A DNA stretch of 64,000 nt from an uncultured Lachnospiraceae bacterium (GCA_947172645.1 CAMWBY010000015.1:22720-86719); one strand, 5' to 3'; counted from the first letter of the stretch, positions 41,026-63,233 are shown. The notes: generated by a model not told the origin, from the sequence alone. Made by a program: numbers and translations.

Positions 41026-41056
41026 ACCGATACCAGAACAGGGAAGGAGAAATGCT

Positions 41057-42343: not shown

Positions 42344-42364
42344 TGGGAAAGGAGAGTATGAGTT

Positions 42365-44061: not shown

Positions 44062-44128
44062 AAAGTATTTTCAATGGGAAGGTATTGTAATATCATATAT
44101 ACAAAAATAGAAAAGGCAGGTGCAGTAT

Positions 44129-46306: not shown

Positions 46307-46359
46307 TTATAAAATCGGTAGTACAACTCCCTTTCTTATATATACTACACTACAGGATA

Positions 46360-46394
46360 AGCCGGCACAGATTATTTCGTGCCGGTTTATTTTG
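46360..46394 (+). terminator. Rho-independent terminator after the alpha-galactosidase gene
   Basis: GCCGGCAC-agattatttc-GTGCCGGT followed by TTATTTTG. Confidence 0.75.
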
Positions 46395-46543
46395 TCGTTT
46401 CCGGTCATTTTTCTAAATTATCTGTTTTCGGATAGAATGAAATTGTTTTGTACTTTCCTTTTTTGTGTTACAATAGGCATTACGATAATGAAAATAACAT
46501 AACGGCTGAAAATATTTATGAGCTTTGGTTTATGGAGGCAAAA

Positions 46544-47968
46544 ATGAGAGGTCAGAAAAATCCGGAGAAGTTTGATTGGAATTATTTTTTAAAGCATATT
46601 GCGATTATTGCTGTGCCCGTGGCATTGCAGAATCTTCTGACGACTACGGGAAGTATGGTAGATACGATGATGCTGGCTTCTCTGGGAGAACAGACGGTGG
46701 GGGCTGTGGGGCTTTGCGCCCAGTTTTCCAGTCTGATGTTTGCAGGCTATTGGGGATTTGTGGGCGGCGGTATGTTGTTTTTTGCCCAATACTGGGGAGC
46801 AAAAAACGATGATGGAATCAACCGTTCTTTCGGCCTGACTCTTTCTTTTATGATGGCGGTGGGACTTATTTTTAGCTTTCTTGCTCTGGGGGCTCCAGGT
46901 TTTATTATGAATATCTATACCGATAAGCCGGAAATCCAGCAGATAGGAATTTCTTATTTGAAAATTGCAGGTTTTGCTTATATCCTTCAAATTCTGGCTA
47001 TGGCGGTGAGCGCCCTGCTTCGTTCTATTGAACAGGTAAAGATTCCTCTTTACGGTGGAATCGCCTCGGTTGTTTCCAATTGTTTTTTTAATTATCTGCT
47101 TATCTTCGGAAAATTTGGGCTCCCGAGGATGGGAGTGCGCGGGGCGGCTCTTGGAACGGTGCTTGCGGGCATGGTGAATCTGCTTATTTTGTTGTTTTTT
47201 ATAATCAAAAATAAGATACCCTATGCGTTGGAATTTTCCAGGCATTTCCGTTGGAATAGGGCATTTGTCGGGCAGTATCTACAGAAGTGTTTTCCGATTC
47301 TGTGCAACGAAGTGTTAATCGGAGTGGGAAATATGATGATTAATATTGTCCTGGGCCATCAGAGTGAAAAGGCTATCGCCGCCGTGGCGGTATTCCGTAC
47401 TTTGGAGGGGCTTGTCATTGCTTTTTTCAGCGGTTTCTCCAATGCGGCTACGGTTCTTGTAGGAAAAGAAGTGGGGGCGGGAAACCACGAGGTAGCTTTT
47501 CAGCGCGCCAAACGGTTGGTATATCTGTGCAGCGCACTGATTGGCATGGCCTGCCTTGGGGTGATTGCCGTACATAATCCGTTACTTCATGCAATGGGGC
47601 TTAGCGGGGAATCTTACCGGATTGGAACGGGTATGCTGTTGATTTACAGTTTAGCAGCCTTGTTTCGGATGGGAAACTGGACGCAGAACGATACATACCG
47701 CTCCGCGGGAGATGCAGCCTTTGGCTCTGTCATGGAAATTACCTTTATGTATTTGATGGTGCTTCCATGTGTGTATGCGGCTAACTATGCGTTCCATCTG
47801 CCTTTTCTCTTGGTATTTGCTTTGTGTTATGTGGATGAGCCAGTCCGGTACATTATTATGCAGTGCCATATGTATTCCGGTAAATGGATAAAACCGGTGT
47901 CGGATGAAGGGGCGAAGACGATTGAAGAGTTCCGCAAACGGCACGGGATTGAGAAGGTGCAAAAATAA
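46544..47968 (+). CDS. MATE-family efflux transporter
   Basis: The ATG at 46544 follows GGAGG. 'VPVALQNLLTTTGSMVDTMMLASLG' and a 12-TM profile. Confidence 0.9.
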   Translation: MRGQKNPEKFDWNYFLKHIAIIAVPVALQNLLTTTGSMVDTMMLASLGEQTVGAVGLCAQFSSLMFAGYWGFVGGGMLFFAQYWGAKNDDGINRSFGLTLSFMMAVGLIFSFLALGAPGFIMNIYTDKPEIQQIGISYLKIAGFAYILQILAMAVSALLRSIEQVKIPLYGGIASVVSNCFFNYLLIFGKFGLPRMGVRGAALGTVLAGMVNLLILLFFIIKNKIPYALEFSRHFRWNRAFVGQYLQKCFPILCNEVLIGVGNMMINIVLGHQSEKAIAAVAVFRTLEGLVIAFFSGFSNAATVLVGKEVGAGNHEVAFQRAKRLVYLCSALIGMACLGVIAVHNPLLHAMGLSGESYRIGTGMLLIYSLAALFRMGNWTQNDTYRSAGDAAFGSVMEITFMYLMVLPCVYAANYAFHLPFLLVFALCYVDEPVRYIIMQCHMYSGKWIKPVSDEGAKTIEEFRKRHGIEKVQK

Positions 47969-47992
47969 TTTTTTGAAAAAACGGAGGTAAAT

Positions 47993-48775
47993 ATGAAAAA
48001 TTATTCAGAAGATGCAAGCAGGCAGTACCACATACAGGTGGCGCAAGGGGAAGTAGGCCGGTATGTCATCATGCCCGGGGACCCTAAAAGATGCGTGAAG
48101 ATAGCGCAATATTTTGACAATCCGGTTTTGGTTGCAGATAACAGGGAGTATATAACGTATACCGGGACTTTGGATGGAGTGAAGGTCAGCGTTACATCCA
48201 CCGGAATCGGGGGACCGTCTGCATCCATCGCCATGGAAGAGCTATGCCGGTGCGGCGCAGATACGTTTATCCGTATCGGAACTTGCGGCGGTATGCAGCC
48301 GGAGGTCAAAAGCGGGGATGTTGTGATTGCCACTGGGGCAATCCGCATGGAAGGGACGAGCAAGGAGTATGCCCCTATCGAATTTCCTGCGGTAGCAGAT
48401 ATCAATGTGACGAATGCGCTGGTAACGGCGGCGAAGGAGAAGGGATATCCTTTCCATACAGGCGTCGTGCAGTGTAAGGATGCGTTTTACGGACAGCATG
48501 AGCCGGAGACGAAGCCGGTAAGCTATGAGCTGATGAATAAGTGGGAGGCCTGGAAGAGACTTGGGTGCCTGGCGTCGGAGATGGAGTCTGCGGCTTTATT
48601 TGTAGTGGCAAGTTATTTGCATGTCAGGACCGGCTCCTGCTTCCTGGTAGTTGCCAATCAGGAGAGGGAGAAGCTTGGGTTGGAGAATCCGGTGGTGCAT
48701 GATACAGATATGGCGATTCAGGTGGCAGTGGAGGCAATCCGGGAGTTAATCAGGCAGGACAAGAAACAGGCGTAG
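47993..48775 (+). CDS. udp: Uridine phosphorylase (PNP_UDP_1 family)
   Basis: '[10 protein letters not shown]', '[16 protein letters not shown]', 'EMESAALF'. The Udp-type 'STGIGGPS' motif argues against DeoD. Confidence 0.85.
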
Positions 48776-48928: not shown

Positions 48929-49342
48929 TTACTGGATTGGATTTAAATATTTTTCTATCATGTCTACTACATAGTTAGCTGTTTCTAATTGTTCTTTGGC
49001 ATCTTCTACGGAAACAATATAAAAATCGTCATAATCGCTAGCATGGCGTATTTCTTGTGCCCGATTAATTTTTTTACTCATTTCTTTTGGAAAGATACCG
49101 GTATGGATAAAATCTTTATTAAAATTCCCAAGTACTTGAGCATGTTGTTTGTATGCTTTAAATTCTAATGCAAGGCAGGCTGAGACAGCCCTAAAAATTG
49201 CATAATATGCTCTGTTATTAGAAGCACGGTAATGTCCGATTTGGAAATTTATTTTAGCGGCTTCTAAATCTTCTTTTGCAATGGTAATTCGGTATTGAGC
49301 CAGTTCCTTTGCGCCGCCAATATCGTCTAAGTTAAGTTGCAT
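48929..49342 (-). CDS. HEPN-domain protein (toxin component of a HEPN/nucleotidyltransferase pair)
   Basis: 137-aa all-helical protein with 'RASNNRAYYAIF' and 'EIRHASDYDDF'. Overlaps the upstream nucleotidyltransferase gene by 11 nt. Confidence 0.75.
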   Translation of the reverse strand: MQLNLDDIGGAKELAQYRITIAKEDLEAAKINFQIGHYRASNNRAYYAIFRAVSACLALEFKAYKQHAQVLGNFNKDFIHTGIFPKEMSKKINRAQEIRHASDYDDFYIVSVEDAKEQLETANYVVDMIEKYLNPIQ

Positions 49343-49670
49343 ATAATTCTATCCCTTCTTTTTTTACATTGTAGTAAAATGGATATGCACGCAGCCACTT
49401 ATTAAAATGTTCTAAGTTTTTAACAATTGGCATTATTTTTAAGTTGTCGTCGAAATTATATTCAAAAGTCATATCAGAAAGAAGATGTCCTTTATTTATA
49501 ATTTCCCGGTCTGATAAATCAACTAAAATCATAATATCAATATCTGAATCAGGTTTACAATCTCCTCGTGCATAGGAACCATATAAGATTACGGTTTTTA
49601 ATTGCTTACCATATATATGTTGTATGTCTTTGACATAGTTTTTTAAAATGTTGTCTATTTTTACAGGCAT
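49332..49670 (-). CDS. Minimal nucleotidyltransferase (MNT) domain protein (antitoxin-type partner of HEPN)
   Basis: 'LYGSYARGDCKPDSDIDIMILV' (GSxxRG...DxD Pol-beta NTase motif). The ORF reaches 49709; the ATG at 49670 follows AAAGGA. Confidence 0.8.
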   Translation of the reverse strand: MPVKIDNILKNYVKDIQHIYGKQLKTVILYGSYARGDCKPDSDIDIMILVDLSDREIINKGHLLSDMTFEYNFDDNLKIMPIVKNLEHFNKWLRAYPFYYNVKKEGIELYAT

Positions 49671-49707
49671 ATTTTTTCCTTTCATTGAGGAATATCTTTT
49701 ATTTGCC

Positions 49708-49728
49708 ATTTGTCTATTTTGGACAAAT
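49708..49728. promoter_or_regulatory. Small palindrome upstream of the MNT/HEPN pair, candidate autoregulatory operator
   Basis: ATTTGTC-tattttg-GACAAAT, directly upstream of the pair. Confidence 0.3.
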
Positions 49729-49862: not shown

Positions 49863-50972
49863 ATGAATATAAAAGATTATTTACAGGAGGAACCCACCAT
49901 CATGCAGGATTTTATTAAAATATCAAAATATGCGGGAATGCGTAACGACCTGGCGCAGGCAGGGGGAGGTAATACTTCTGTCAAGCTTGACGGCAATGTG
50001 ATGCTTGTGAAAAGTTCAGGGTTCCAATTGGCGGATGTAGACGAACAGACAGGTTATTCCAAGGTTGATTATAGAAAAATTATTGACTATTTCAAAGAAT
50101 GTGTGGAAGGACAGAAAGAAGACGTATTTACGGAAGAGTGCGGGAAAGAATTGTTGCAGCAGGCACAGATAGAAGGTGGGCGCGCTTCCATAGAGACCTT
50201 TCTTCATGCCGTCACCGGAAAATATACACTTCATTCCCATCCTACGCTTGTCAATATTTTAACGGCAAGGGCAGGGGGCATGGAAGTTCTGCGCAACCTT
50301 TTTCCGAAAGCGGTGTTTGTGCCATACAGGAAGCCAGGAGCGGCACTGGCGGAAACATATTATAAGATATACCGTAAACAGCAGAAACAGGGGGCGGACG
50401 GCTCGGTTATTTTCCTGGCAAACCATGGCCTGGTGGTGAGCGGAGACGATGGCGATACGGTAATCGGTATGACGGAGCAGGTTTTAGGGAAGATTGCCGG
50501 ATACTTGGGCATAGATGACAGAGCTTATACGGCGGCGACAGCACTCTATCAGACAATACAGCAGATAGAGGGGCTTTGCGGGAATATTGTTTATCTTTCT
50601 GAAAATAGGTATTTATCTCATGAATATGCGGGCGGCAAGTTGGCGGAAGAAGGTTTGTGGGAACATGCCTTCTGTCCTGACTGTGTGGTCTATGCGAATA
50701 AGAAATTGCTGTGGCTTAAGAAGGATTATGGCAAGCAGGACATTATACAATTTATGGAGCAGTCGGGCGCTCCGGCATTGGTATATTATGAAGGGCATTT
50801 TTATATTTTGGCGGAGAGTGTGAAAAAAGCGCAGGAGATTGAGAATGTGATGAGTTTCGCGGCGAGAGTGCAATACGCCAACATAGGGCAGAAGATGAAT
50901 ATACTCAGTGACGCCCAGGAAAACGAGCTTCTCAACTGGGATGCGGAGAAATACCGGAGACGGATGGCGTGA
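49863..50972 (+). CDS. Stand-alone class II aldolase/adducin-fold protein (like the N-terminal domain of YuxG/RhaD-type aldolase-dehydrogenases)
   Basis: 'AQAGGGNTSVKLDGNVMLVKSSG', 'ASIETFLHA', 'LHSHPT'. The probable start is Met14 at 49902, 11 nt after AGGAGG. Confidence 0.75.
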   Translation: MNIKDYLQEEPTIMQDFIKISKYAGMRNDLAQAGGGNTSVKLDGNVMLVKSSGFQLADVDEQTGYSKVDYRKIIDYFKECVEGQKEDVFTEECGKELLQQAQIEGGRASIETFLHAVTGKYTLHSHPTLVNILTARAGGMEVLRNLFPKAVFVPYRKPGAALAETYYKIYRKQQKQGADGSVIFLANHGLVVSGDDGDTVIGMTEQVLGKIAGYLGIDDRAYTAATALYQTIQQIEGLCGNIVYLSENRYLSHEYAGGKLAEEGLWEHAFCPDCVVYANKKLLWLKKDYGKQDIIQFMEQSGAPALVYYEGHFYILAESVKKAQEIENVMSFAARVQYANIGQKMNILSDAQENELLNWDAEKYRRRMA

Positions 50973-51021
50973 CAATCATGTATTGCCGGAAGTAAGGATT
51001 GGCGCAAGAAAGGATATACAT

Positions 51022-52770
51022 ATGAATGTGATGATTCCTATGACGGGCTACGGTTCCCGTTTTGTGGCAGCAGGCTACCAGGATTTGAAGCCTTTTATCA
51101 AGGTGATGGGCAAGCCGGTTATAGAGTGGATTGTGAAAGGAATGTATCCCCAGGATGTGAATTTTATTTTTGTGTGCCGGGGAGAACATCTTAAGGAAAA
51201 TCCGGCAATGCGAGAGAGGCTTTTGGGTATAGCGCCTGGCGCAGTCATTGTGACGATTGAAGATTGGGTGAAGAAGGGGCCCGTTTTCGATGTGCTGCGC
51301 GCGTATAAGGCTGTCCGCCAGGTGAAGAACATAAAGGGCAGCAGTGCGGACGGCAGACATCACAATAACAGGTGTCCGGAGCGTGAGTGCGGCGGTGATA
51401 TCAATATAGACGGCGTTCTGTTGTGTTGCGAGGATGTAGAAAAAATAGCCGGAATTGATTTAGAGGACGGATTTATTATCAATTACTGCGATTTCTATAT
51501 GAAATGGGACTATGCCTCTTTTGCCCAAAAAGCCAGGGAACGCGGCTGCGACGGCGCGGTGCCTTGTTACACTGGATTTCATCCGAACTTGCTTCCGGAA
51601 AAGAATTATTATGCCTCCTGCCTGACGGATGAAGAAGACAATCTCATAGAGATTCGGGAGAAATACTCCTTTGAAAAAGATAAGACAAAGGCGAAGCATT
51701 CACCGGGCGTTTACTATTTTAAGAATGGCGGAACGATGGAGAAATACTGTCAGATATTGACGGAGCATGAAGAATGTGCAATCAATGGGGAGTATTATGC
51801 GTCTTTGCCCTATCAATTCATGGTGCGGGACGGGCTGAAAGTATGGGTTCCGGCTGATGTGGAATATTTCTGCCAGTGGGGTACGCCGGAGGATATGGAG
51901 GAGTTTGTCTACTGGACGGATTTGATAAGGAAAGCCGGGAGTGAGCAGGATATTGTGCAGAAGGATGCGTGCCTTGGACGTATTTTAATCCCTATGGCGG
52001 GTGCAGGGCAGCGGTTTGCGGATGCGGGGTATCAGGTACATAAACCTGCAATTATGACGGTAGACCGCAAGACAGGGCAGGAGAAACCTATGGTGGTATG
52101 CGCTACGGCGGATTTACCGGGGGTTGCGCCGGACGGAAGCAATGTGATATACGTGGACAGGTCCTTCCACAAATCTGACGGGGTGGAAGATGTCATCCGT
52201 GCATATTATCCGAAAGTATCTTTTATTACGGTGGACCATTTGACCGAAGGACAGGCATGTACATGTATGTTGGCGGAGAATGACTTGAATCCGGAAGAAC
52301 CGTTGTTGATTGCGGGCTGTGATAATGGCATGGATATTGACAGAGAAGCTTTTTCCAGGTTGACAGAGGAATGCGACTGTATCGTGTTTACTTATCGCCA
52401 TAATGAGGCGGTGCTGGCGAATCCCAATGCCTATGGATGGATGATTGCCGATGAGGACGGGAATATTACAGGCACATCCATTAAAAAAGCAATTTCAGAA
52501 ACACCGATGGAGGACCCTGCGGTGGTGGCAACCTTCTGGTTTAAGAAAGCGAAAATATTCCTGGAGGCTACGAAGAAGATGATTGCGGAGAATGACCGTA
52601 TCAACGGGGAATACTATGTGGATCAGGTGGCAAAACACGTCCTGGATTTAGGTTACCGTGCGAAGATATTTGACATAGAACGGTACGTGGGGTGGGGTAC
52701 GCCTGCGGACTATGAAGGATACCAGAAGACATGGAAGTATTTTGAGGGGTTTCTTGCATCTGAAAAATAA
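51022..52770 (+). CDS. Tandem (duplicated) sugar-phosphate nucleotidyltransferase-like protein
   Basis: Two GT-A/NTP-transferase-like halves. Half 1: 'MIPMTGYGSRFVAAGYQDLKPFIKVMGKPVIEW ... CQWGTPEDMEEF'. Half 2: 'LIPMAGAGQRFADAGYQVHKPAIM ... VGWGTPADYEGY'. The ORF-track start at 50908 overlaps the upstream gene. Confidence 0.75.
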   Translation: MNVMIPMTGYGSRFVAAGYQDLKPFIKVMGKPVIEWIVKGMYPQDVNFIFVCRGEHLKENPAMRERLLGIAPGAVIVTIEDWVKKGPVFDVLRAYKAVRQVKNIKGSSADGRHHNNRCPERECGGDINIDGVLLCCEDVEKIAGIDLEDGFIINYCDFYMKWDYASFAQKARERGCDGAVPCYTGFHPNLLPEKNYYASCLTDEEDNLIEIREKYSFEKDKTKAKHSPGVYYFKNGGTMEKYCQILTEHEECAINGEYYASLPYQFMVRDGLKVWVPADVEYFCQWGTPEDMEEFVYWTDLIRKAGSEQDIVQKDACLGRILIPMAGAGQRFADAGYQVHKPAIMTVDRKTGQEKPMVVCATADLPGVAPDGSNVIYVDRSFHKSDGVEDVIRAYYPKVSFITVDHLTEGQACTCMLAENDLNPEEPLLIAGCDNGMDIDREAFSRLTEECDCIVFTYRHNEAVLANPNAYGWMIADEDGNITGTSIKKAISETPMEDPAVVATFWFKKAKIFLEATKKMIAENDRINGEYYVDQVAKHVLDLGYRAKIFDIERYVGWGTPADYEGYQKTWKYFEGFLASEK

Positions 52771-52833
52771 AACAGAAACTAATCAAAATAGTTTCATAGC
52801 TGATAAAATCCGAGCAGAGAGGTACAGGCATTT

Positions 52834-54948
52834 ATGTTACAGAGACTGGAAACCCTGGACTGGGAGAAGAATTACCATAGAATATTAAAAATATCTGTTA
52901 CCGTGACAGTCTTATTTAAGTTACTCTTGATGGGGCTATTTTCATCGGATTACCAGGACATGATGTTTATCCCGTTTGTCCAGTGTTTTCTAGGGGGTGA
53001 GAACCCATACCAGTATTATTATGATAATGGGCTTCTCCCTTCTTTTCCCTATCCGCCCGTTATGCTTTTCATAGAGAGTATTGGAGGGATTCTCCTTAAA
53101 TTTGGCGGTGAGCTTCCGGTTTTTCTGCATAATTTTCTCTTTAAGCTGCCTCTTCTTTTCGCAGATTTGTTGGGGCTGTACTATCTGATGCGTATTTCAA
53201 AGTCCAGGCGTAAGTATATTATGGTGTTATATTTCCTGTCTCCGGTTATTCTGTATGCTTCTTATATGCATGGACAGCTTGACATCATACCGACAGTATT
53301 TTTAGTGGCGGCCATTTACTATTTGACGAAAGCGGGTATATCGAAAGAAGAGTGTGCCCGCAATGACTGGAAATTTGTGCTGTTTTTGACGCTGTCCCTG
53401 GCGTCCAAGTTCCATATTGCGGTGGTTTTCCCATTATTTTTCCTTTATCTATATAAAAAAAGAGGAGGCAGGAAAGCGATAATTATGACGGGGCTCCCGG
53501 TCTTGTTTACGGTTGTTGCCGTGATTCCTTTTTGGGGAAGCGGTTTTCTTAGCATGGTGCTGTTTAATAAGGAGCAGAATGTCATTGATAATGTATATCT
53601 TGATTATGGCAGCGCGCATCTTCTTTTATGTGTGCTTGTACTCCTTATGATTTATTTCCAGGCTTTCCATGTAAACCAGATGAACAGGGATTTGCTTATC
53701 AGTATGGCGGGGTTGGTTTTTTCTGTATTTCTTGCGTTTGTGCCTGCCATGCCTGCATGGTATATATGGGTGGCGCCTTTTTTTATGCTGTACTTGTCAG
53801 GCTTATCAGTCAGCCGCAGTAAGATGGTTATGGTTTATGGCATGTTTCATCTGTTATACTTAATCTATTATATATGTTTCCATACCGCAGGATTTACGGA
53901 CTTATCTTTTCTGGGAAAAGATTTGGGATGGCTGAAATATCATGATGCAGGTCTGAAAGATATCGTGTTTACATTGATGGTCGGGGTATTCCTGATTCTC
54001 GTTGTCTCCATGTATCTGTACGGGGTAGGGAGTAATTCCTATTACCGGAGAAGAAACAGACCTTTTACGGTGGGTATAGCAGGGGACAGCGGCGCAGGCA
54101 AGAACAGGCTGCTTACTATGTTGGAAGAACTGTTTGGCGGGGAGAATATTCTGGATATTGAAGGAGACGGTGACCACAGGTGGGAGCGGGGCGATGCCAA
54201 TTGGGATGGCATGACCCATTTAAATCCATTGGCCAATTATCTGTACAGGCAGGCGGAGGATTTGCGCGTGCTGCGCGGGAACAATGCGGTTAAACGGGCG
54301 GATTATGACCATAATACCGGAACGTTTACAGGCAGGAAAAAGGTATCTCCGAAACCGTATATTGTTATGTGCGGCCTGCATTCGCTTTATTTGCCTCAGA
54401 TGAGAGAGGTGCTTGACTTAAAAATTTACCTGGATACCGATGAAGCGCTCAGACGGTACTGGAAAATGAGCAGGGATTTGGGTGACAGAGGGCATACGGT
54501 AAAAGAAGTTGCGGCGCAGATGGAGAAAAGACGCCCGGACGCCGAGAAGTATATCCATCCGCAGAAAAAGTATGCCGACCTTGTCATCCGTTATTATGAC
54601 GCAGCTTTGGCGGAAGACTTCAAGGACATAAAGGGTACGCATAAACCACAACTGGGAGTAGAATTTTTGATGGATGTGAGTATCAATGCAGAGCCTGTGC
54701 TTGTTCTTTTACAGGAGCAGGGTGTACACGGAAGCTTATCTTATGACAATGACCTGCTTCACCAGAGGATTGTTTTTGCGGGTGAGGATTTGGCAGTGGG
54801 AAAAGAAGTCTGGGAAAAAACTGCACGCGCGGCGGTTCTGCAGATGGAGGACTTGACAGGCGGGCACGTTACGTGGGAAGATGGCGTCAACGGATTGATA
54901 CAGGTAGTGCTTTTGGTGGTAATTGGAGAGATTATGAAGAGGGATTAG
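52834..54948 (+). CDS. Fusion of a polytopic GT-C-like membrane domain and a phosphoribulokinase/uridine-kinase-family domain
   Basis: Residues 1 to about 400 hold 10 or more TM helices with 'SSDYQD' and 'FPYPP' in early loops. Residues from about 405 to 600 read 'VGIAGDSGAGKN', 'HLNPLANYLY', 'YDHNTG', 'LDLKIYLDTDEALRRYWKMSRDLGDRGHT' and 'RRPDAEKYIHPQKKYADLVI', closely paralleling plant/cyanobacterial PRK motifs. Confidence 0.75.
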   Translation: MLQRLETLDWEKNYHRILKISVTVTVLFKLLLMGLFSSDYQDMMFIPFVQCFLGGENPYQYYYDNGLLPSFPYPPVMLFIESIGGILLKFGGELPVFLHNFLFKLPLLFADLLGLYYLMRISKSRRKYIMVLYFLSPVILYASYMHGQLDIIPTVFLVAAIYYLTKAGISKEECARNDWKFVLFLTLSLASKFHIAVVFPLFFLYLYKKRGGRKAIIMTGLPVLFTVVAVIPFWGSGFLSMVLFNKEQNVIDNVYLDYGSAHLLLCVLVLLMIYFQAFHVNQMNRDLLISMAGLVFSVFLAFVPAMPAWYIWVAPFFMLYLSGLSVSRSKMVMVYGMFHLLYLIYYICFHTAGFTDLSFLGKDLGWLKYHDAGLKDIVFTLMVGVFLILVVSMYLYGVGSNSYYRRRNRPFTVGIAGDSGAGKNRLLTMLEELFGGENILDIEGDGDHRWERGDANWDGMTHLNPLANYLYRQAEDLRVLRGNNAVKRADYDHNTGTFTGRKKVSPKPYIVMCGLHSLYLPQMREVLDLKIYLDTDEALRRYWKMSRDLGDRGHTVKEVAAQMEKRRPDAEKYIHPQKKYADLVIRYYDAALAEDFKDIKGTHKPQLGVEFLMDVSINAEPVLVLLQEQGVHGSLSYDNDLLHQRIVFAGEDLAVGKEVWEKTARAAVLQMEDLTGGHVTWEDGVNGLIQVVLLVVIGEIMKRD

Positions 54949-54957
54949 GTTAGCAGG

Positions 54958-55635
54958 ATGATAAAAGCAATTATATTTGATTTGGACGATACATTGTATG
55001 CCTATGAGCCATTGGACAAAGAAGCATGTCGGAGGGTACAGGAGTATGCCTGTGCGGAATTGGGAATCACTGTGCAGCAGTATGAGGAAGCATTTCTATA
55101 CGGCAGGAGTGAGACGAAGCGCAGTTTGGGCGATGTGGCGGCCTGCCACAACAGAATGTTGTATTTTCAAAAGACATTGGAGCGTCTTGGTGTAAATCCT
55201 GCGCCCATGTCTTTACAATTATATGAGACATATTGGGGTACTTTTTTAGAAAAAATGGTTTTACGCGAGGGCGCAAGAGAATTTTTAGATGCCATGCATG
55301 AACATGGAATCAGAGTCATGGTGTGCACTGACTTGACGGCGCATATCCAGCACCGCAAAATAGAGGCTCTTGGCATAGCGGATGATATATGCTGTTTGGT
55401 AACCAGTGAGGAGGCGGGCAGAGAGAAGCCTTCCAGGGAAATTTTTGAGTTATGTTTGGAGAAGCTGAAACTTCCGCCTGATGAAGTATGCTGCATTGGG
55501 GATAATTTTGAGAAAGATGTGGAAGGCGCAAGAGCCGCGGGAGTACAGGCGATTTGGTTCGATGCGGGCAAACCCAGTGCGGCGCAGTTTGTGGAGGCGA
55601 TGCGGGGTATTTTGGGAGAGGAGAGCCATTTATGA
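54958..55635 (+). CDS. HAD-superfamily hydrolase (subfamily IA)
   Basis: Motif I 'IIFDLDDTLY', motif II 'VCTDL', motif IV 'CIGDNFEKDVEGA'. Confidence 0.88.
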   Translation: MIKAIIFDLDDTLYAYEPLDKEACRRVQEYACAELGITVQQYEEAFLYGRSETKRSLGDVAACHNRMLYFQKTLERLGVNPAPMSLQLYETYWGTFLEKMVLREGAREFLDAMHEHGIRVMVCTDLTAHIQHRKIEALGIADDICCLVTSEEAGREKPSREIFELCLEKLKLPPDEVCCIGDNFEKDVEGARAAGVQAIWFDAGKPSAAQFVEAMRGILGEESHL

Positions 55636-56330
55636 AACTATCTATTGTTGTTCCATGTTATAATGAAGAACAGAATATTCCGTTAATCCTGGAACGGTTT
55701 GGGGAGATGATTGATAGGGATGATATTGAGGTTATTCTTGTGGACAACGGTTCCACGGATGGCAGCGCGCAGGCGCTTACACGTCTTCTTCCCGAGTATC
55801 CTTTCGCCCGGACGGTGAAGGTGGAGGTCAACCAGGGATATGGGTACGGGATTCTGCAGGGACTGAAAGAGTGTCAAGGGGAATATATCGGTTGGACACA
55901 TGCGGATATGCAGACTGACCCTGCGGATATTCTCAAGGCTTTGGCCATTATAGAAGGGGAGAGAGGATTGGTTTTTGTAAAAGGAAATCGCAAGAACCGG
56001 CCATTTTTTGATGTTTTCTTCACGGTGGGCATGAGCTTGTTTGAGACGTGTTATCTACATAAGAAATTATATGATATCAATGCCCAGCCCAATATTTTCC
56101 CTAAGGTATTTTTTGATGCATGGGAGAATCCTCCTTATGATTTTTCCCTGGATTTGTACGCCTTGTATATGGCGCGCAAGAAGAATCTGAAGGTAGTCAG
56201 ATTTCCGGTGCTTTTCCCGGAGAGGATTTATGGGGAATCAAAGTGGAATACGGGGTTAAAGGCTAAATGGAAGTTTATTAAGAGGACGATAGAATTTAGT
56301 GTGAACCTGAAGAAAAATGGAAACTTATAA
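55632..56330 (+). CDS. Family 2 glycosyltransferase, Dpm1/GtrB/ArnC-like (polyprenyl-phosphate sugar synthase type), short form without C-terminal TM helices
   Basis: 'LSIVVPCYNEEQNI', 'VDNGSTDGS', 'HADMQTDP'. ATGA overlap with the HAD gene. The ORF-track start at 55554 is an out-of-context extension. Confidence 0.82.
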   Translation: MKLSIVVPCYNEEQNIPLILERFGEMIDRDDIEVILVDNGSTDGSAQALTRLLPEYPFARTVKVEVNQGYGYGILQGLKECQGEYIGWTHADMQTDPADILKALAIIEGERGLVFVKGNRKNRPFFDVFFTVGMSLFETCYLHKKLYDINAQPNIFPKVFFDAWENPPYDFSLDLYALYMARKKNLKVVRFPVLFPERIYGESKWNTGLKAKWKFIKRTIEFSVNLKKNGNL

Positions 56331-56354
56331 TTTGTAAAGGAATGAGGGATTAAT

Positions 56355-56945
56355 ATGGAATACATAGCGCATCGGGTAAATACGGTAGATGAATTACGTA
56401 AATTGCCTCCGGAATATGGGGTGGAGTTAGATTTAAGAGATGATTTGAATGGCAGAATCTATATTTCCCATAACCCTTTTGAGGCGGGTGAGGATTTTGA
56501 GGATTACTGTAAAGAATATCATCATGGAACGATGATTCTGAATATTAAGAGCGAGCGGATTGAACATAAAGTGTTGAAATATATGAAGCAGTACCGTATC
56601 GAAAAGTATTTTTTCTTGGATTCGTCTTTTCCGATGATAAAATTGCTGACGGATATGGGAGTAAAAGATATCGCGCTCCGGTTCAGTGAATTGGAAGGGC
56701 TTGACACAATCCGTAATATGGCAGGCAAGGCGGACTGGGTCTGGGTAGATTGTTTCACGAGAATTCCACTTGACTACAACAGTTACCGGGAGTTGAAAGA
56801 TTTAGGATATAAGCTATGTTTCGTGTCGCCGGAACTAGAAGGACAGGAGGAGAAAATCCCTGCGTACAGAAAATACATAGAAGAACAGAAAATTGTGTTT
56901 GATGCGGTATGCACGAAGAGCTACCATATAGAAGACTGGATGTAA
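56355..56945 (+). CDS. GDPD-like (glycerophosphodiester phosphodiesterase / PLC-like TIM barrel) protein
   Basis: 'IAHRVNT', 'GVELDLRDDLNGRIYISHNP', paralleling the GDPD motifs HR(G) and E-x-D...HD. Confidence 0.6.
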   Translation: MEYIAHRVNTVDELRKLPPEYGVELDLRDDLNGRIYISHNPFEAGEDFEDYCKEYHHGTMILNIKSERIEHKVLKYMKQYRIEKYFFLDSSFPMIKLLTDMGVKDIALRFSELEGLDTIRNMAGKADWVWVDCFTRIPLDYNSYRELKDLGYKLCFVSPELEGQEEKIPAYRKYIEEQKIVFDAVCTKSYHIEDWM

Positions 56946-57010
56946 ATTTGGTGCCAAAGAGCTTTAAGCGCTGCCCAAATGTGCAGGCTGAGCAAGAATG
57001 GTGGATTAAT

Positions 57011-58603
57011 ATGAACAAACCAAACAAAGAAATACATATAAAAATAGTTATGGCGGCGGCAATCGTAGCAACTTTGCTTGCGGGATTGCTTATATTCTAC
57101 AGACATTGGAATTTTGAACTGCCACTGTATCCGAATGTGGATGAACAGTTGTCTTTAGACTGTATATACGACTTGTTAGGACAACATATTTATGCGGGTG
57201 ATATTTATGTATTGGATTTCTTCCGGTATCCGCATCTGACGTTCTACTATGCGGTTCTGGGGGTGCGCATTTTAGGAAAACTAATCCGGGGAGTGGATAC
57301 GGTTATCCTGCTTCGCTATGTGGTGTGCGGGACGGCGGTTTTGTCTAATCTGTGTATTTATTTTGCAGTTAAGAAAATGACAGGGGAGCGGAAATGGGGA
57401 TTCATCGGTCTGGTGCTGTCTGTCTTTTCGCTTTATGGATACGCTTACCTGTATTATACAGGCCCGGATACGATGATGTATGCGGTTGCCAATGTCATTA
57501 TGCTTCTGGGGTGTGTGATTTACAAGGATGTGCAGGAAGACAGGGTGGTTTACTTGTGGTATCCTCTCCTTGCAATCTGTATTGGTCTTGCCACCGCGGC
57601 CAAATACCACGGGATTTTATTTGGTGTATTCTGGCTTGCGCTGCATATTAAAAAGAGATATTGGAAGAACCATCGCAACAATTATTTGTTTTTCCTGAAT
57701 TGTATTGTGCTTGCGTTAGTATTCTGTCTGTGTAATTATTCGATGTTTTTTCATTTTAAAACATTTGTATGGGATAACTTGTACAACTTAAACCACTATG
57801 CCTGGGGACATCCGGGGATAGAACATAACTTTTCTCTTCTGGGGTATCTGGAAGCCTATGCGCTTACAAGTTTTGGTATTGTGGGCGGGCTGTTGCTCGT
57901 ATTAGGAATTGTTTGGCTGGTTCGCAAGAAAGACAGGCAGCAGCTTATTGTGTTTCTGATTATGCCGGTGGGTATCATACTGTTTTTATCAAAGTATAAA
58001 ATTGTGTTAGGAAGAAATCTGTCGTTGGTACTGCCCTTTGCGTTTCTGTTTATGGTATATGGACTGATGGAGATAGAAAGGCTGTTTGAAGGCCGTCGTT
58101 ATTATAAAAAGGGTATGATTCCGGCATTGATTGCTTTGATGGTAGTCTGCAACGTGGGGGTGGCTGTCAACGGTTACCGTTACCACTTGTCATATACGCA
58201 TGCGGAACATTATATCAGGACACAGATTCCGGAGGGTTCTACCGTTTATTGCACTTCCTTTGCTCCTTTGATAGATTCCAAGCGGTATCAGGTGATAGAT
58301 ATAGGGGAGGATATCAGCAGTTTGCCGGATAAGCTGAGCGATAAGGAATATTATGTGGATGTGGAATATGCCACAGGATATTTTGACCAACGTAAGGATT
58401 ATTTGATTTTTCAGGGCAAGGATATGTACCCTGACTTAAAGGATGCATACGAGAAGAAGATTGGAAGTTATACGCTGTTACAGGATTTTGCAGGCATATC
58501 CTACGGGAGAGAGTGGAGATACCGTATCGGGTATCTTGATATGTTTCGGTACAGCCCGGAGAAATATTATATTGGGCCCAGCGTTGCCATTTATGGAAAA
58601 TAG
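57011..58603 (+). CDS. GT-C-fold membrane glycosyltransferase (ArnT/PMT/YfhO-like) with a C-terminal extracytoplasmic domain
   Basis: The ATG at 57011 follows GGTGGA. About 11 TM helices, a 'NVDEQ' acidic motif in the first loop, and a soluble C-terminal tail of about 150 aa. Confidence 0.72.
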   Translation: MNKPNKEIHIKIVMAAAIVATLLAGLLIFYRHWNFELPLYPNVDEQLSLDCIYDLLGQHIYAGDIYVLDFFRYPHLTFYYAVLGVRILGKLIRGVDTVILLRYVVCGTAVLSNLCIYFAVKKMTGERKWGFIGLVLSVFSLYGYAYLYYTGPDTMMYAVANVIMLLGCVIYKDVQEDRVVYLWYPLLAICIGLATAAKYHGILFGVFWLALHIKKRYWKNHRNNYLFFLNCIVLALVFCLCNYSMFFHFKTFVWDNLYNLNHYAWGHPGIEHNFSLLGYLEAYALTSFGIVGGLLLVLGIVWLVRKKDRQQLIVFLIMPVGIILFLSKYKIVLGRNLSLVLPFAFLFMVYGLMEIERLFEGRRYYKKGMIPALIALMVVCNVGVAVNGYRYHLSYTHAEHYIRTQIPEGSTVYCTSFAPLIDSKRYQVIDIGEDISSLPDKLSDKEYYVDVEYATGYFDQRKDYLIFQGKDMYPDLKDAYEKKIGSYTLLQDFAGISYGREWRYRIGYLDMFRYSPEKYYIGPSVAIYGK

Positions 58604-59518: not shown

Positions 59519-59545
59519 ATAATAATAAAAAATGCACAAAAATAT

Positions 59546-59574
59546 ATTGACGTGGAGCGATACACATGATATAT
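59546..59574 (+). promoter_or_regulatory. Sigma-A promoter of the LacI-family gene, overlapped by an operator-like site
   Basis: TTGACG (59546..59551), 17 nt spacer, TATATT (59569..59574). The spacer holds ACGTGGAGCGATACACAT (59549..59566), a 15/18 match to the downstream 18-bp palindrome. Confidence 0.6.
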
Positions 59575-59600
59575 TATGCATAAGGAGAAAGGAAAGCTGC

Positions 59601-60608
59601 ATGGCGACTATATATGATGTAGCAAAAAAAGCCGGAGTTTCCAAGACGTTGGTGTCCAGGGTGCTTAACAATCAACCGGGAGTCGGGGTAGAGTCCAGGA
59701 CGAGGATTATGGAAGCGATGCGGGAGCTGCAATATAAACCGAGCACGATTGCCAGGTCCCTTGTATTGCAGAGAACCAACGTGATAGGAATGATATTGGA
59801 TTCCTTGACAGAGCCATATTTCTTTGATGTGATTAAGGGCGTTGAAGATAAGGTAATCGAAAATGGTTTCCGGGTTATTTTCTGCAGCGGGAGAAACGAC
59901 AGGAGAGAGAAAGAGACGTACATAGATTTTTTCAGCAATGGGACGACCGATGGAGCGATTATCTACGGAAGTGATTTGGATGACGCTGACTTAATCCGCA
60001 GGCGGGCACAGATGGATTTCCCTTTTGTGGTAGTCGAGAATGAAGTGGAGGACGCCAATGTGAATAATGTCCTCATTGACAATACTTACGGCTCTAAATT
60101 AATTGTGGACCATCTTGTGGAGAGAGGTTGCAGGCACATTATGCACGTGACAGGCGCCAAGAGCACCAAAGCTGCGTTACGCAGATGGCAGGGTTATCTC
60201 ATATCCATGGAACATCATGGGTTAAAGCAGTATCAGTCAGTGATTGAGTGCGATGAGTTTGGTGTGGAGACCGGATATGACGCGGTTAAGCAATTTTTGG
60301 AAAAGAACGGCGACAAGGCGTTGCCGGACGCTATTTATTTCGGGGCCGACAACACGGCAGTGGGCGGCATGATGGCTTTGGAGGAGAAGGGAATACGGAT
60401 ACCGGAAGATATTAAGATTGCCGGTTTCGATGACGACAAGCGTTGGGATTTGGATAAGAGCGTGAAGAAACTGACAACTATCCGGCAGCCCCTTTATGAA
60501 GTCGGTGCGAAAGCTGTGGAAATCCTGCTTGGACAGATTCACGACCCGGATGCGCCGAGACAGAAAATTATTATGAAACCGGAATTAGTGGTCGGGGAGA
60601 CGACGTAA
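59601..60608 (+). CDS. LacI-family transcriptional regulator
   Basis: 'MATIYDVAKKAGVSKTLVSRVLNN' HTH plus a periplasmic-binding-protein-like sugar domain. The ORF-track start at 59532 lies inside the promoter. Confidence 0.92.
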   Translation: MATIYDVAKKAGVSKTLVSRVLNNQPGVGVESRTRIMEAMRELQYKPSTIARSLVLQRTNVIGMILDSLTEPYFFDVIKGVEDKVIENGFRVIFCSGRNDRREKETYIDFFSNGTTDGAIIYGSDLDDADLIRRRAQMDFPFVVVENEVEDANVNNVLIDNTYGSKLIVDHLVERGCRHIMHVTGAKSTKAALRRWQGYLISMEHHGLKQYQSVIECDEFGVETGYDAVKQFLEKNGDKALPDAIYFGADNTAVGGMMALEEKGIRIPEDIKIAGFDDDKRWDLDKSVKKLTTIRQPLYEVGAKAVEILLGQIHDPDAPRQKIIMKPELVVGETT

Positions 60609-60721
60609 TCCCTACTTTTCTTCGGATAACGGAATTATTTTAGGTATGTGGATTTTTCACATAGTTTTCCGAACAGAGAATACAGAGGAGAATAGCATTG
60701 CGAAAGGCTTTTCTCACAAAA

Positions 60722-60739
60722 ATGTGTAACGATACACAT
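60722..60739. promoter_or_regulatory. LacI-type operator copy 1
   Basis: ATGTGTAACGATACACAT, a palindrome with 8 of 9 positions paired and a central CG. Confidence 0.7.
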
Positions 60740-60841
60740 AGTATATTGAAGAGAAAATGAATGTTGTATAGGTCTGAATATGATAAATCAATCGTTAACA
60801 AGACACCAGGATTTTATTGTGTGTTTTATTTTTTAAAAAGT

Positions 60842-60859
60842 ATGTGTAACGATACACAT
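60842..60859. promoter_or_regulatory. LacI-type operator copy 2 (identical)
   Basis: ATGTGTAACGATACACAT, 120 bp from copy 1 and 22 nt upstream of the GH4 start codon. Confidence 0.7.
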
Positions 60860-60880
60860 TGAAAGGGAGGTAGATACAAT

Positions 60881-62146
60881 ATGGAAGGAATGAAGTTTAC
60901 CATTGTAGGGGCAGGCAGTTCCTATACGCCGGAATTGTTGGATGAGATGTCAATGCGCAAGGAGCAGCTCCCGGTGAAAGAGGTCATGCTCTATGATATC
61001 GATGAAAAGCGTCTGGCTACTATGGAAGGGTTCTGTAAGAGATTTTCCCGGAAAATGGGGCTCGAGGTGGAAATCAAGAGTACGGCTGATTTGGATAAGG
61101 CGCTTTACGGGGCTGATTTCGTGGACACGCAGATTCGCGTGGGAGGGAATAAACAAAGAGTAAAGGATGAGAAAATTCCACTCCAATATGACTTGGTAGG
61201 ACAGGAAACTACAGGGGCAGGCGGAATGATGAAGGCGTTCCGCACGATTCCGGTAATGTTACATGTTGCGGAGAAGATGGAGGAACTGTCGCCGGAGGGG
61301 TGGCTGATTAATTACACCAATCCTACCGGACTTGTGACAGAGGCGGTGACAAGATATACGAAGGCTAACATCGCAGGCTTTTGTTCCGGCGGTATTTTTC
61401 CGAAGATGTGGGCAAAACGGGCGATGGGGATTCCCTATGAGAAAGTACAGTATGATTATGTGGGACTAAACCATATGAACTTTATCAGTAATATCACGAT
61501 TGACGGACGCCCGGTATCAGAAGAGGAATTTGCGAAGATTGCTGCGCAGAATGACGATGTGGATTTGGAGTTAATTAAGCTTCTGGGCGTGATTCCCAGC
61601 CCGTATCTCCAGTGGTATTACCATACCAACGAGAAAGTTGCGAAATTTAAGGCCGCTCCCAAGACAAGAGGAGAGTATGTCCAGGATTTAGAGAAAGAAG
61701 TGTTTGCCGCTTATGCGGACGAGACGAATTGTGAGAAACCTGCGGCATTGGCGAAGAGGGGCGGCGGCGGATACTCGGAAGTTGCCATGGGATTTGTAAA
61801 TGCTGTTTACAATAACATAGACACGAAGATGGTAGTGAATGTGCCTAACCAGGGTGCGGTTTCCTTCTTACCGGATTCGGCCGTGGTGGAAGTAGGATGC
61901 CTGGTCAATAAGACAGGAATGCAGCCGCTGCATGTTGCGAAAGTTCCTGAAATGTGTTGGGGCCTTATCGCGGCGGTGAAAAATTATGAGCAGTTGGCAG
62001 TAGAAGCGGCGGTAGAGGGAGATGTCAGGAAAATGAAGCTTGCGCTTTTGGCGCATCCGTTGGTTCGCCAGTGGGAATATGTGGAAAAATTGGTTCCTGA
62101 ACTTCTGGAGGCGAACAAAGAATACTTACCGCAGTTTTTTAAATAA
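60881..62146 (+). CDS. Glycoside hydrolase family 4 (NAD/Mn-dependent, 6-phospho-glycosidase type)
   Basis: 'MKFTIVGAGSSYTPELL', 'NYTNPTGLVTEAV', 'IAGFCSG', 'GLNHMNF'. Confidence 0.88.
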   Translation: MEGMKFTIVGAGSSYTPELLDEMSMRKEQLPVKEVMLYDIDEKRLATMEGFCKRFSRKMGLEVEIKSTADLDKALYGADFVDTQIRVGGNKQRVKDEKIPLQYDLVGQETTGAGGMMKAFRTIPVMLHVAEKMEELSPEGWLINYTNPTGLVTEAVTRYTKANIAGFCSGGIFPKMWAKRAMGIPYEKVQYDYVGLNHMNFISNITIDGRPVSEEEFAKIAAQNDDVDLELIKLLGVIPSPYLQWYYHTNEKVAKFKAAPKTRGEYVQDLEKEVFAAYADETNCEKPAALAKRGGGGYSEVAMGFVNAVYNNIDTKMVVNVPNQGAVSFLPDSAVVEVGCLVNKTGMQPLHVAKVPEMCWGLIAAVKNYEQLAVEAAVEGDVRKMKLALLAHPLVRQWEYVEKLVPELLEANKEYLPQFFK

Positions 62147-62240
62147 GGAAAAATATGAAAAAATAAGCTGATTACATGTTCGGATGCGTTTGTTTGGACT
62201 GCTGTAGGGTCAAATTTATATATAGGGATGGAAGGTAAAT

Positions 62241-63233
62241 ATGGAATATATTTTAGGAATCGACCAGGGAGGCAGTAAAACCCATGCCGTGCTGTCGGAT
62301 GGGGAGGGAAGAATCCTGGGGATGGGCAAAAGCTATGGGGCGTGTCATTCCAGCAGCAGCTTGGAATATGCCATGGGTGCAATATTGGAAGCTTCCGACC
62401 AGGCGCTTGGCGCATGTGGAGTTACAAGAAAAGATATCGGCGCAGTGGTAGGAGGGTTGACAGGAATAGATTGGGATTATGAAGCCGCATTATTGGAAAA
62501 ATCTTTAAGAGAACCTTTCTCGTCGGCGGATGTCCAGGTAGTGAATGACAGTATTATCGCTATGCGGGCGGCCACGCGAGGAGACAGATGTGGTATCCTA
62601 TGCGCCGGTTCCGGGTTAAATTGCGCGGTGCAGAACATGGAAGAATGCTTTGCGTATGGATTCTATATACCGGATGAGTACCAAGGGGGATGCAGTCTTG
62701 GAAAAAAAGCAGTCCAGTCAGTGTTTGATTCCCATATGGGACTGCTTCCGGAGACCACATTGACGGAGAGGATTCTTGATTATTTTCACGCGGATACAGT
62801 GGATAAACTGCTGTTTATGCGGGTGAAGGGGCGAATTGAAAACAACGATTATCTGAACCTGCCTATCATCATAGAAGAAGAGGCATGCGCCGGTGATTTG
62901 GTGGCGGCGGATATCTGGAAAAATTATGGTAATGTGATTGCCGGTTTCCTGGTGGCGAGGATAAAGAAGATGGGCATCGCCGACCAGGATGTTGACATCG
63001 TTCTTTCGGGGAGCATTTTTAAATGTAAGTTCCAGGAGTTCCAAAGAACGGTAAAAAGAGAAATATTACGTAACGTTCCGAATGCCAATATTATTGAAGC
63101 GCGTTATGAACCGGTTATGGGGGCTGTAACCATGGCGCTGCAGAGAATACACGGAAAATTGGCGGAAGACATTTACGATAATATTGAAGAAACCAGTAAA
63201 CAATTTCCACTTAGGAGACTGGAAAAGAATTAG
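62241..63233 (+). CDS. BadF/BadG/BcrA/BcrD-type ATPase (N-acetylglucosamine-kinase-like sugar kinase)
   Basis: 'ILGIDQGGSKTHAVL', 'GLTGID', 'GSGLNC', 'LSGSIF', an ASKHA-fold kinase pattern. Confidence 0.78.
   Translation: MEYILGIDQGGSKTHAVLSDGEGRILGMGKSYGACHSSSSLEYAMGAILEASDQALGACGVTRKDIGAVVGGLTGIDWDYEAALLEKSLREPFSSADVQVVNDSIIAMRAATRGDRCGILCAGSGLNCAVQNMEECFAYGFYIPDEYQGGCSLGKKAVQSVFDSHMGLLPETTLTERILDYFHADTVDKLLFMRVKGRIENNDYLNLPIIIEEEACAGDLVAADIWKNYGNVIAGFLVARIKKMGIADQDVDIVLSGSIFKCKFQEFQRTVKREILRNVPNANIIEARYEPVMGAVTMALQRIHGKLAEDIYDNIEETSKQFPLRRLEKN

Follow-up and report, generated by a model that had tools for sequence, protein, structure and literature searches.

A widespread and mis-annotated fusion of a GT-C-fold membrane domain to a phosphoribulokinase-type kinase, in a cassette that predicts an anabolic role for ribulose-1,5-bisphosphate

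Background

A 64,000-nucleotide stretch of DNA from an uncultured Lachnospiraceae bacterium (GCA_947172645.1, CAMWBY010000015.1:22720-86719), here called the window, carries an open reading frame (ORF) in which a multi-pass membrane domain is followed by a soluble domain related to phosphoribulokinase (PRK). PRK is treated as a signature enzyme of RuBisCO-based CO2 fixation. What, then, might such a kinase do when it is joined to a membrane domain that resembles glycosyltransferases of the GT-C fold? A first reading, made from the sequence alone, had proposed this architecture, and had offered as explanations either substrate channelling at the membrane or a regulatory or degenerate nucleotide-binding module.

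The ORF starts with ATG, is uninterrupted, and lies exactly where the sequence-only reading had placed it. Its parts are as follows.

52834-54948, plus strand: fusion gene encoding 704 amino acids (aa), with an N-terminal predicted GT-C-fold membrane domain and a C-terminal PRK-type kinase (ATG-start ORF, full-length homologues)
52834-54048, plus strand: predicted GT-C-fold membrane domain, aa 1-405, about 12 transmembrane helices, both termini cytoplasmic (AlphaFold, Foldseek, Pfam matches of relatives, topology)
54049-54948, plus strand: predicted cytoplasmic PRK-type kinase domain, aa 406-704 (profile and sequence matches; Foldseek matches 9qkp, 6hzk and 5b3f)
54073-54105, plus strand: Walker A loop GIAGDSGAGKN, aa 414-424, with Asn424 at the position that is Ser or Thr in the family (sequence, variant counts, independent contigs)

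All of the motifs previously listed are present in the translation: SSDYQD (aa 37-42) and FPYPP (aa 71-75) in the membrane half, and GIAGDSGAGKN (aa 414-424), HLNPLAN (aa 462-468), YDHNTG (aa 491-496), LDLKIYLD (aa 527-534), WKMSRDLGDRGHT (aa 543-555) and RRPDAEKYIHPQKKYADLVI (aa 566-585) in the kinase half.

On balance, the evidence tips toward the fusion protein being a bifunctional membrane enzyme that serves as the hub of a Gtr-type envelope-glycosylation cassette, which would be fed by ribulose-5-phosphate by way of ribulose-1,5-bisphosphate (RuBP) and ribulose-1-phosphate. The evidence for this function comes from the kinase half, the membrane half, and the set of genes with which the fusion is inherited.

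Results and discussion

The soluble half resembles a complete phosphoribulokinase

The kinase half belongs to Pfam family PF00485, which it matches over aa 413-586 (E 1.7e-32, 113.3 bits against a cutoff of 22) and which is also matched by 60 of 60 diverse relatives of the fusion. The NCBIfam model for plant and cyanobacterial PRK, NF005655, is matched at 196.3 bits (E 7e-58, model positions 4-222 of 326), a score that lies under the model's cutoff of 236. The same protein scores 79 bits on the rival uridine kinase model and 26 bits on that for class-I PRK. Comparison with the PDB gives the same ranking, in that PRKs are found at 1e-38 and uridine kinase at 6e-16; the match to Synechococcus PRK (6hzk, E 1e-38) includes 185 ungapped columns at 39% identity. 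Thus, when the kinase family is checked by profile, PRK models clearly outscore those of uridine kinase.

A full-length AlphaFold model was built with 49 close homologues (67-86% identity) and has a moderate pLDDT of 65.8. The chains that Foldseek finds with it are PRKs and uridine kinases only. Whole PRK chains align over about 317 columns, namely the cyanobacteria-specific PRK 9qkp, Synechococcus 6hzk and Methanospirillum 5b3f, with template-modelling (TM) scores of 0.5-0.63 on the target given this moderate query model. The soluble domain had been estimated at about 200 aa; it is instead about 300 aa long. As modelled, aa 406-704 have the whole fold of a class-II/archaeal PRK, down to the C-terminal part through which PRKs form their dimer interface. 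PRKs dimerize through their C-terminal sheet; therefore, the fusion probably dimerizes the transferase as well.

The residues needed for catalysis can be followed from a characterized enzyme. PRK from Chlamydomonas uses the catalytic dyad Asp57/His105 and binds ribulose-5-phosphate through Arg64, Tyr103, His105, Arg159, Asp160 and Arg164 (PMC9978339; bioRxiv 10.1101/422709). In an ungapped alignment, D57, H105, R64, Y103, R159, D160 and R164 correspond to D445, H493, R452, Y491, R547, D548 and R552 of the fusion protein, which therefore carries both the Asp-His dyad and the ribulose-5-phosphate ligands. Across 115 relatives (28-48% identity), K423, D445, H448, R452, Y491, H493, K544, R547, D548 and R552 are all invariant. 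Where photosynthetic PRKs have their two regulatory cysteines, the fusion has A421 and E443. Judged by these residues, the kinase half is apparently a fully competent PRK.

It is possible, if doubtful, that the kinase is active on a substrate other than ribulose-5-phosphate. Candidates include xylulose-5-phosphate, fructose-6-phosphate and sedoheptulose-7-phosphate, uridine or cytidine for a local supply of UDP-sugars, or a lipid-linked intermediate at the membrane surface. PF00485 spans several kinases, databases call the fusion family "uridine kinase", and the last membrane helix is separated from the P-loop strand by only about 10-15 residues, so the active site would be near the membrane. 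Moreover, R455, the counterpart of the second and less conserved Arg of the PRK phosphate site, is not conserved. However, the large lead of PRKs over uridine kinase in both profile and PDB comparisons points to ribulose-5-phosphate, as do the invariance of all PRK-specific sugar-phosphate ligands and the adjoining gene for a HAD-family phosphatase, described below, whose product specifically resembles an RuBP 5-phosphatase.

The membrane half is predicted to have a GT-C fold

In Pfam, the membrane half of the fusion has no match at any E-value up to 10, and in particular none to the GT87 profile (PF09594). For this reason its assignment depends on structure and on relatives. A second AlphaFold run, on residues 1-409 with 73 diverse relatives, gave a model with a pLDDT of 93.8 and a pTM of 0.92. 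Its significant Foldseek matches in the PDB are exclusively GT-C proteins, mostly transferases: ArnT (E 1.2e-4), yeast ALG3 (E 9.5e-4, TM 0.58/0.61), STT3, PIG-U, AglB, ALG9, AftA and AftB. With these structural matches and about 12 helices, the domain agrees with the general picture of GT-C enzymes, which are polytopic and have 7-13 helices. Among 60 diverse relatives, Pfam GT87 weakly matches 19 (best 9.1e-8), and others match ALG3 or Alg6_Alg8, some of them above the Pfam gathering score. A profile of the family itself weakly finds GPI mannosyltransferase 1. The previously proposed GT-C identity of the membrane domain thus gains nothing from profile matches of this protein, but is upheld by Foldseek and by the Pfam matches of its relatives. 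The domain is best seen as a separate family near GT87, ALG3 and Alg6_Alg8.

By hydropathy and the positive-inside rule, the domain has about 12 helices and cytoplasmic ends, which puts the kinase inside the cell. The placement of the kinase in the cytoplasm follows from the positively charged loops, and the kinase begins only about 10-15 residues past the last membrane helix.

Several residues of the membrane half are conserved to a degree that is expected of an active or ligand-binding site. P72, K192 and W312 are found in 115 of 115 sequences, and D111 and D150 in 114 of 115. The two loop motifs that had been taken as GT-C-like differ in this respect. F71-P72-Y73, the FPY of FPYPP, is essentially invariant, but SSDYQD is not a motif of the family, since of 115 relatives only 39 have Asp at the position of D39 and another 10 have Glu. 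D111 and D150 lie elsewhere than the Asp position of the first loop of GT-C enzymes. As modelled, aa 1-405 is a GT-C fold, the catalytic residues of which would not include the textbook first-loop Asp.

The poor conservation of this Asp, together with the presence of PIG-U chains among the Foldseek matches, leads to another interpretation. The membrane domain might be an anchor or lipid-binding scaffold with a GT-C fold, comparable to PIG-U of the glycosylphosphatidylinositol (GPI) transamidase, and might serve to keep the kinase at the membrane while a second membrane protein (56909-58603) carries out transfer. Most cassettes do contain an extra large polytopic protein. These extra proteins, however, are mutually non-homologous and are absent from several cassettes. 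The invariant or near-invariant D111, D150, K192, W312 and P72 also argue for an active or ligand-binding site, and a flippase of the GtrA family is fused directly to the GT-C domain in 6 of 60 relatives. We therefore regard a scaffold role as unlikely.

Asn424 is probably a tolerated variant of the Walker A loop

The Walker A loop of the fusion protein ends in GAGKN and so departs from the canonical GxxGxGK[ST]. The codon for Asn424, AAC at 54103-54105, is one transition away from the Ser codon AGC. Six independently assembled contigs carry an identical protein, which excludes a sequencing error as the source of the Asn. The position that follows the Walker Lys was counted in 349 members of the family and is Ser in 239, Thr in 81, Asn in 13, Asp in 9 and His in 7. 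The loop had been described as an atypical P-loop; the Asn is real, but such emphasis does not suit a family in which 320 of 349 members have the canonical GKS or GKT. The Asn, Asp and His variants are scattered over unrelated lineages (Asn occurs, for example, in proteins from Omnitrophica and Woesearchaeota), and all of them keep the PRK catalytic residues. The side chains of Asn, Asp and His are all able to serve as metal ligands. These observations suggest that Asn424 is a tolerated minority substitute for the Walker A Ser or Thr, and no mark of decay.

The suggestion of a regulatory or degenerate module would now apply to this genome specifically, with the Ser-to-Asn change as its cause. 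In other P-loop proteins, substitutions here make the binding of Mg-nucleotide weaker, and GAGKN does stand in place of GxGKS/T. Nevertheless, such a loss of activity is very improbable. The domain is not expected to be degenerate because its PRK catalytic and ribulose-5-phosphate-binding residues are all invariant in the 115 relatives, variants with Asn, Asp or His included. In addition, the whole cassette is intact in the window, and the recurrence of Asn in 13 members of unrelated lineages, where Asp and His also occur, speaks against decay.

The fusion is widespread

Two initial searches for homologues found nothing beyond close Lachnospiraceae proteins; the breadth of the family was seen through a profile search and a search of representatives. 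More than 120 clusters at 90% identity consist of full-length proteins of about 700 aa. An exhaustive search of 50%-identity representatives found 812 proteins at E<=1e-30, and the best 150 of these, nearly all of 670-720 aa, align end to end at 28-52% identity. When one genome per species was scanned, at least 446 genomes were found to encode a relative of the fusion. Carriers include Lachnospiraceae, Clostridium butyricum, C. botulinum, Paenibacillus, Nitrospiraceae, Leptospiraceae, Cytophagaceae, Omnitrophica and a Woesearchaeota archaeon. The proposal of one ORF with both halves has therefore held, and the architecture is kept full-length in hundreds of species. That two genes were joined by an assembly error or frameshift can be dismissed, since nothing supports it and the single uninterrupted ORF, the more than 120 clusters, the full length (about 670-720 aa) of 150 of the 150 top representatives, the relatives in 446 species genomes, and the identical protein on six contigs rule it out.

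The usual database labels of these relatives are "uridine kinase", "prk" or "hypothetical". The sequence-only reading knew of no described example, and we likewise found no paper that describes the fusion or the cassette in a search of open-access literature directed at the fusion, at PRK in glycan gene clusters and at ketopentose donors. The system is widespread and mis-annotated.

The fusion is inherited with a conserved cassette

In the window, the fusion gene lies within a set of co-directional genes that extends from 49863 to 56945, and is followed by an accessory membrane protein gene ending at 58603. The partners of the fusion gene are as follows.

49863-50972, plus strand: class-II aldolase/epimerase-family protein, 369 aa (PF00596, E 5.7e-11)
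51022-52770, plus strand: tandem nucleotidyltransferase, 582 aa, two GxGxR-type NTP-transferase halves (weak NTP_transf_3, GlmU, RmlA and GalU matches)
54958-55635, plus strand: HAD-IA phosphatase, 225 aa (NF053830, 190.5 bits, E 3.5e-56)
55632-56330, plus strand: GT2 polyprenyl-phosphate glycosyltransferase-type enzyme, 232 aa, no membrane anchor (PF00535, E 2.4e-24)
56355-56945, plus strand: conserved 196-aa protein of an unrecognized family, always after the GT2 gene
56909-58603, plus strand: accessory polytopic membrane protein, 564 aa, variable, no family match

Conservation of the cassette was counted over 80 related loci of Clostridia. The nucleotidyltransferase is present in 78 of these, the GT2 enzyme in 77, the HAD phosphatase in 76, the 196-aa protein in 75, and the aldolase-family protein in 66, and the genes that flank the cassette are not conserved. 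The same gene set, in other orders, is found in Paenibacillus, Nitrospiraceae, Leptospiraceae and a Woesearchaeota (DPANN) archaeon, so that the cassette is known from Bacillota, Nitrospirota, Spirochaetota and a DPANN archaeon. All four of these distant cassettes include the aldolase-family protein and the 196-aa protein. Two separate genes take the place of the tandem nucleotidyltransferase in L079, L073 and L084, the last of which is the Woesearchaeota contig JACQSQ010000055.1.

The HAD phosphatase has as its best curated match the haloarchaeal RuBP 5-phosphatase model NF053830, at 190.5 bits compared with 118.8 for the next family, and this score is well under the equivalog cutoff of 330. 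Five distant orthologues rank the models in the same way (150-184 bits, against 98-122 for the next family). Over the window's protein and these five, the lead of the RuBP 5-phosphatase model is 27-71 bits. The aldolase-family protein scores only 17.5 bits on the ribulose-1-phosphate aldolase equivalog, NF053831, for which the cutoff is 300. The resemblance to the haloarchaeal pathway is thus one of chemistry and not of membership. The active site of the aldolase-family protein is intact, and the His triad H124, H126 and H188, as well as E111, is invariant over 70 orthologues. Comparisons of the aldolase-family protein and the tandem nucleotidyltransferase with the PDB gave only remote, uninformative matches.

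The closest solved relatives of the GT2 enzyme are dolichol-phosphate mannose synthase (DPMS; 5mlz, 1.1e-13), ArnC (9hwj, 2.4e-11) and GtrB. A GtrA-family flippase usually belongs to the gene set as well. It is a separate cassette gene in Velocimicrobium, Nitrospiraceae and Leptospiraceae, and in the 6 of 60 relatives mentioned above it is fused at the N-terminus of the fusion protein. Of the three components expected of a Gtr-type system, the cassette in the window has a GT2 enzyme and a GT-C-fold domain but no GtrA gene, which is present or fused in orthologous cassettes. The DPMS/ArnC-like GT2 enzyme and GtrA of these cassettes provide a context that supports the use of a polyprenyl-phosphate-linked donor by the GT-C domain. 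At the other end of the protein, a relative of 1058 aa (P0244) has a whole aldolase-family protein fused to the kinase C-terminus and is thus a triple fusion.

The 196-aa protein has no match in Pfam, NCBIfam or the PDB, whether a single sequence or a profile is used, nor in a Pfam scan of each member. About 76 columns are invariant, many of them charged or aromatic, and the protein is kept from Clostridia to the DPANN archaeon; it is probably an unrecognized enzyme family. Its HR...ExD...H[ND]PF pattern may resemble that of glycerophosphodiesterase/phospholipase C-like or pentulose-phosphate-epimerase barrels, a likeness that we do not claim as an assignment.

The 564-aa membrane protein matches no family in Pfam or NCBIfam, and occurs in 60 of the 80 loci, only within the close Lachnospiraceae clade. 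Elsewhere, unrelated large membrane proteins, one of them a DUF2142 protein, occupy its place. Such second membrane proteins were considered as core parts of the cassette and rejected, since those of different cassettes share no homology. The 564-aa protein may be a second, acceptor-specific transferase.

In the Woesearchaeota contig (L084, 16369-20520), two genes for STT3/AglB-type oligosaccharyltransferases come right after the cassette. This adjacency hints that the sugar may end on glycoproteins in that archaeon.

A proposed route from ribulose-5-phosphate to an envelope glycan

The favored function, that of a bifunctional hub enzyme in a self-contained cassette, can be stated as a series of steps. 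The kinase domain would use ATP to phosphorylate ribulose-5-phosphate at C1, producing RuBP at the membrane surface. The HAD phosphatase would then strip the 5-phosphate to leave ribulose-1-phosphate, and the two enzymes jointly would achieve an irreversible shift of phosphate from position 5 to position 1. The aldolase-family enzyme, the tandem nucleotidyltransferase and the 196-aa protein would convert this product to a nucleotide-activated pentose or pentulose. The DPMS/ArnC-like GT2 enzyme would load the sugar onto undecaprenyl phosphate, GtrA (a separate or fused gene in other lineages) would flip the lipid-linked sugar, and the GT-C domain would move it onto a cell-envelope polymer outside the membrane. 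Fusion would couple precursor supply to the transferase, in addition to the probable dimerization noted above. The conserved sugar-phosphate and Gtr-type cassette, and the natural fusions with GtrA at the N-terminus and the aldolase-family protein at the C-terminus, lend support to the earlier idea of channelling at the membrane, which is thereby strengthened.

A number of points weigh against this proposal. Both the kinase and the HAD phosphatase score below the cutoffs of the curated models that they most resemble, and the activities of both are predicted only. Asn424, at the Walker A Ser/Thr position, could lower affinity for Mg-ATP. GT-C enzymes are expected to carry an acidic residue in their first outer loop, yet the family does not conserve D39, and the membrane domain could be a non-catalytic GT-C fold, as is PIG-U. 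There is no GtrA gene inside the cassette of this window. The phosphate of ribulose-1-phosphate is on a non-anomeric carbon, which fits poorly with its conversion to a donor for the GT2 enzyme; the roles given to the aldolase-family and 196-aa proteins are guesses. One scheme that is chemically possible, and for which we claim nothing further, begins with activation of the 1-phosphate by the first nucleotidyltransferase; the 196-aa enzyme would next shift phosphate to the anomeric C2 via a cyclic intermediate, and the second nucleotidyltransferase would make the donor.

A more specific proposal is speculative, and we hold it to be rather improbable as a whole. The cassette might represent a pathway, so far unrecognized and shared by bacteria and archaea, that employs RuBP as a biosynthetic intermediate; its carriers would not be expected (and this is an expectation only) to fix CO2 by RuBisCO. 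From ribulose-1-phosphate, both nucleotidyltransferase modules, the 196-aa enzyme and the aldolase/epimerase-family enzyme would make either a rare pentose or an activated ketopentofuranose, namely ribulofuranose or xylulofuranose. This sugar would be carried on undecaprenyl phosphate and installed outside the cell by the GT-C half. If this is true, the pathway would provide the donor route that is lacking for ketopentose residues, among them the xylulofuranose of Escherichia coli O95 and O97. A 2019 review did not identify genes that make this donor (PMC7685785).

An apparently competent PRK that is joined to a membrane glycosyltransferase implies a second, anabolic use of RuBP, in the synthesis of envelope glycans, and it is this unexpected role that the cassette predicts. 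Carriers include gut Clostridia, Paenibacillus, Nitrospirota, spirochaetes and a DPANN archaeon. The labels "uridine kinase" and "prk" also have practical consequences, in that surveys of the Calvin cycle that use PRK as a marker could pick up these fusions. The cassette is compact and portable, includes at least one enzyme family without recognizable relatives, and probably hides new sugar-activation chemistry. It probably also hides a surface glycan of abundant gut Lachnospiraceae, which would bear on host-microbe and phage-receptor biology.

Comparison with known systems

The kinase half shares with class-II and archaeal PRKs (Synechococcus 6hzk, 6kev; Methanospirillum 5b3f) the fold of the whole chain, the Asp-His dyad, and the ligands of ribulose-5-phosphate and ATP. 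It differs by its 12-helix membrane tether, by A421 and E443 in place of the regulatory cysteines, and by the GKN Walker A loop. Its genomic context is glycan biosynthesis and not the Calvin cycle, and its NF005655 score (196 against a cutoff of 236) sets it apart from the modelled PRKs.

Gtr-type systems, such as GtrA/GtrB/GtrC of Shigella and Salmonella and CsbB/GtcA/YfhO and its relatives of Gram-positive bacteria (PMC8035078), resemble those orthologous cassettes that include GtrA, in that a GT2 enzyme, a GtrA flippase and a GT-C protein are encoded together. The known systems use common UDP-sugars, whereas the cassette co-inherits a precursor branch of five proteins (kinase, HAD phosphatase, aldolase-family protein, nucleotidyltransferase and 196-aa protein), of which the kinase is fused to the GT-C domain. 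The cassette in the window further differs by its lack of a GtrA gene.

Two systems that depend on phosphoribosyl pyrophosphate (PRPP) have a pentose bisphosphate-type precursor in common with the proposed route: undecaprenyl-phosphate-ribofuranose of Citrobacter youngae (GT136, PMC11127046) and decaprenyl-phospho-arabinose of mycobacteria. They are also alike in having a phosphatase that removes the 5-phosphate (a HAD enzyme in Citrobacter), a lipid-linked pentose, a flippase, a GT-C protein and fused biosynthetic domains. However, those systems use PRPP and a UbiA-like synthase. The cassette has no such synthase and has instead PRK, nucleotidyltransferases and a GT2 enzyme, which implies a different donor chemistry.

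The non-carboxylating pentose bisphosphate pathway of haloarchaea offers the closest parallel for the HAD phosphatase. In that pathway, a HAD enzyme turns RuBP into ribulose-1-phosphate, and a class-II aldolase-family enzyme follows (PMC9700705). The cassette HAD phosphatase is most similar to this RuBP 5-phosphatase, and both systems include a class-II aldolase-family enzyme. The haloarchaeal route is catabolic, leading from nucleosides via ribose-1,5-bisphosphate isomerase to dihydroxyacetone phosphate and glycolaldehyde, whereas the cassette has an anabolic context and would obtain its RuBP from PRK. With 17.5 bits on the model of the haloarchaeal ribulose-1-phosphate aldolase, the aldolase-family protein is only a remote relative of that enzyme.

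Genomic surroundings

The window includes the chromosomal replication-origin region, at 8582-20962. On the minus strand are jag/khpB (8582-9223) and yidC (9267-10589). The plus strand carries dnaA (12069-13427), dnaN (13729-14871), recF (15263-16357), gyrB (16410-18323) and an ORF of gyrA size (18392-20962). The GC skew switches from about -0.2 to about +0.2 near 12 kb. With the origin near 12 kb, the cassette is about 40 kb away and runs in the direction of replication.

Directly upstream of the cassette, in a low-GC stretch, the minus strand (48929-49709) encodes a HEPN-domain protein of 137 aa that overlaps a minimal nucleotidyltransferase (MNT) of 125 aa; the two look like a HEPN/MNT toxin-antitoxin pair. 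Flanking regions at 41000-48775 and 59532-63233 contain ordinary genes for carbohydrate use: an ABC sugar transporter, a GH36 alpha-galactosidase, MatE, a PNP/UDP phosphorylase, a LacI regulator, GH4 and a BadF-type ATPase. These carbohydrate-use genes are not conserved beside the cassette in other genomes.

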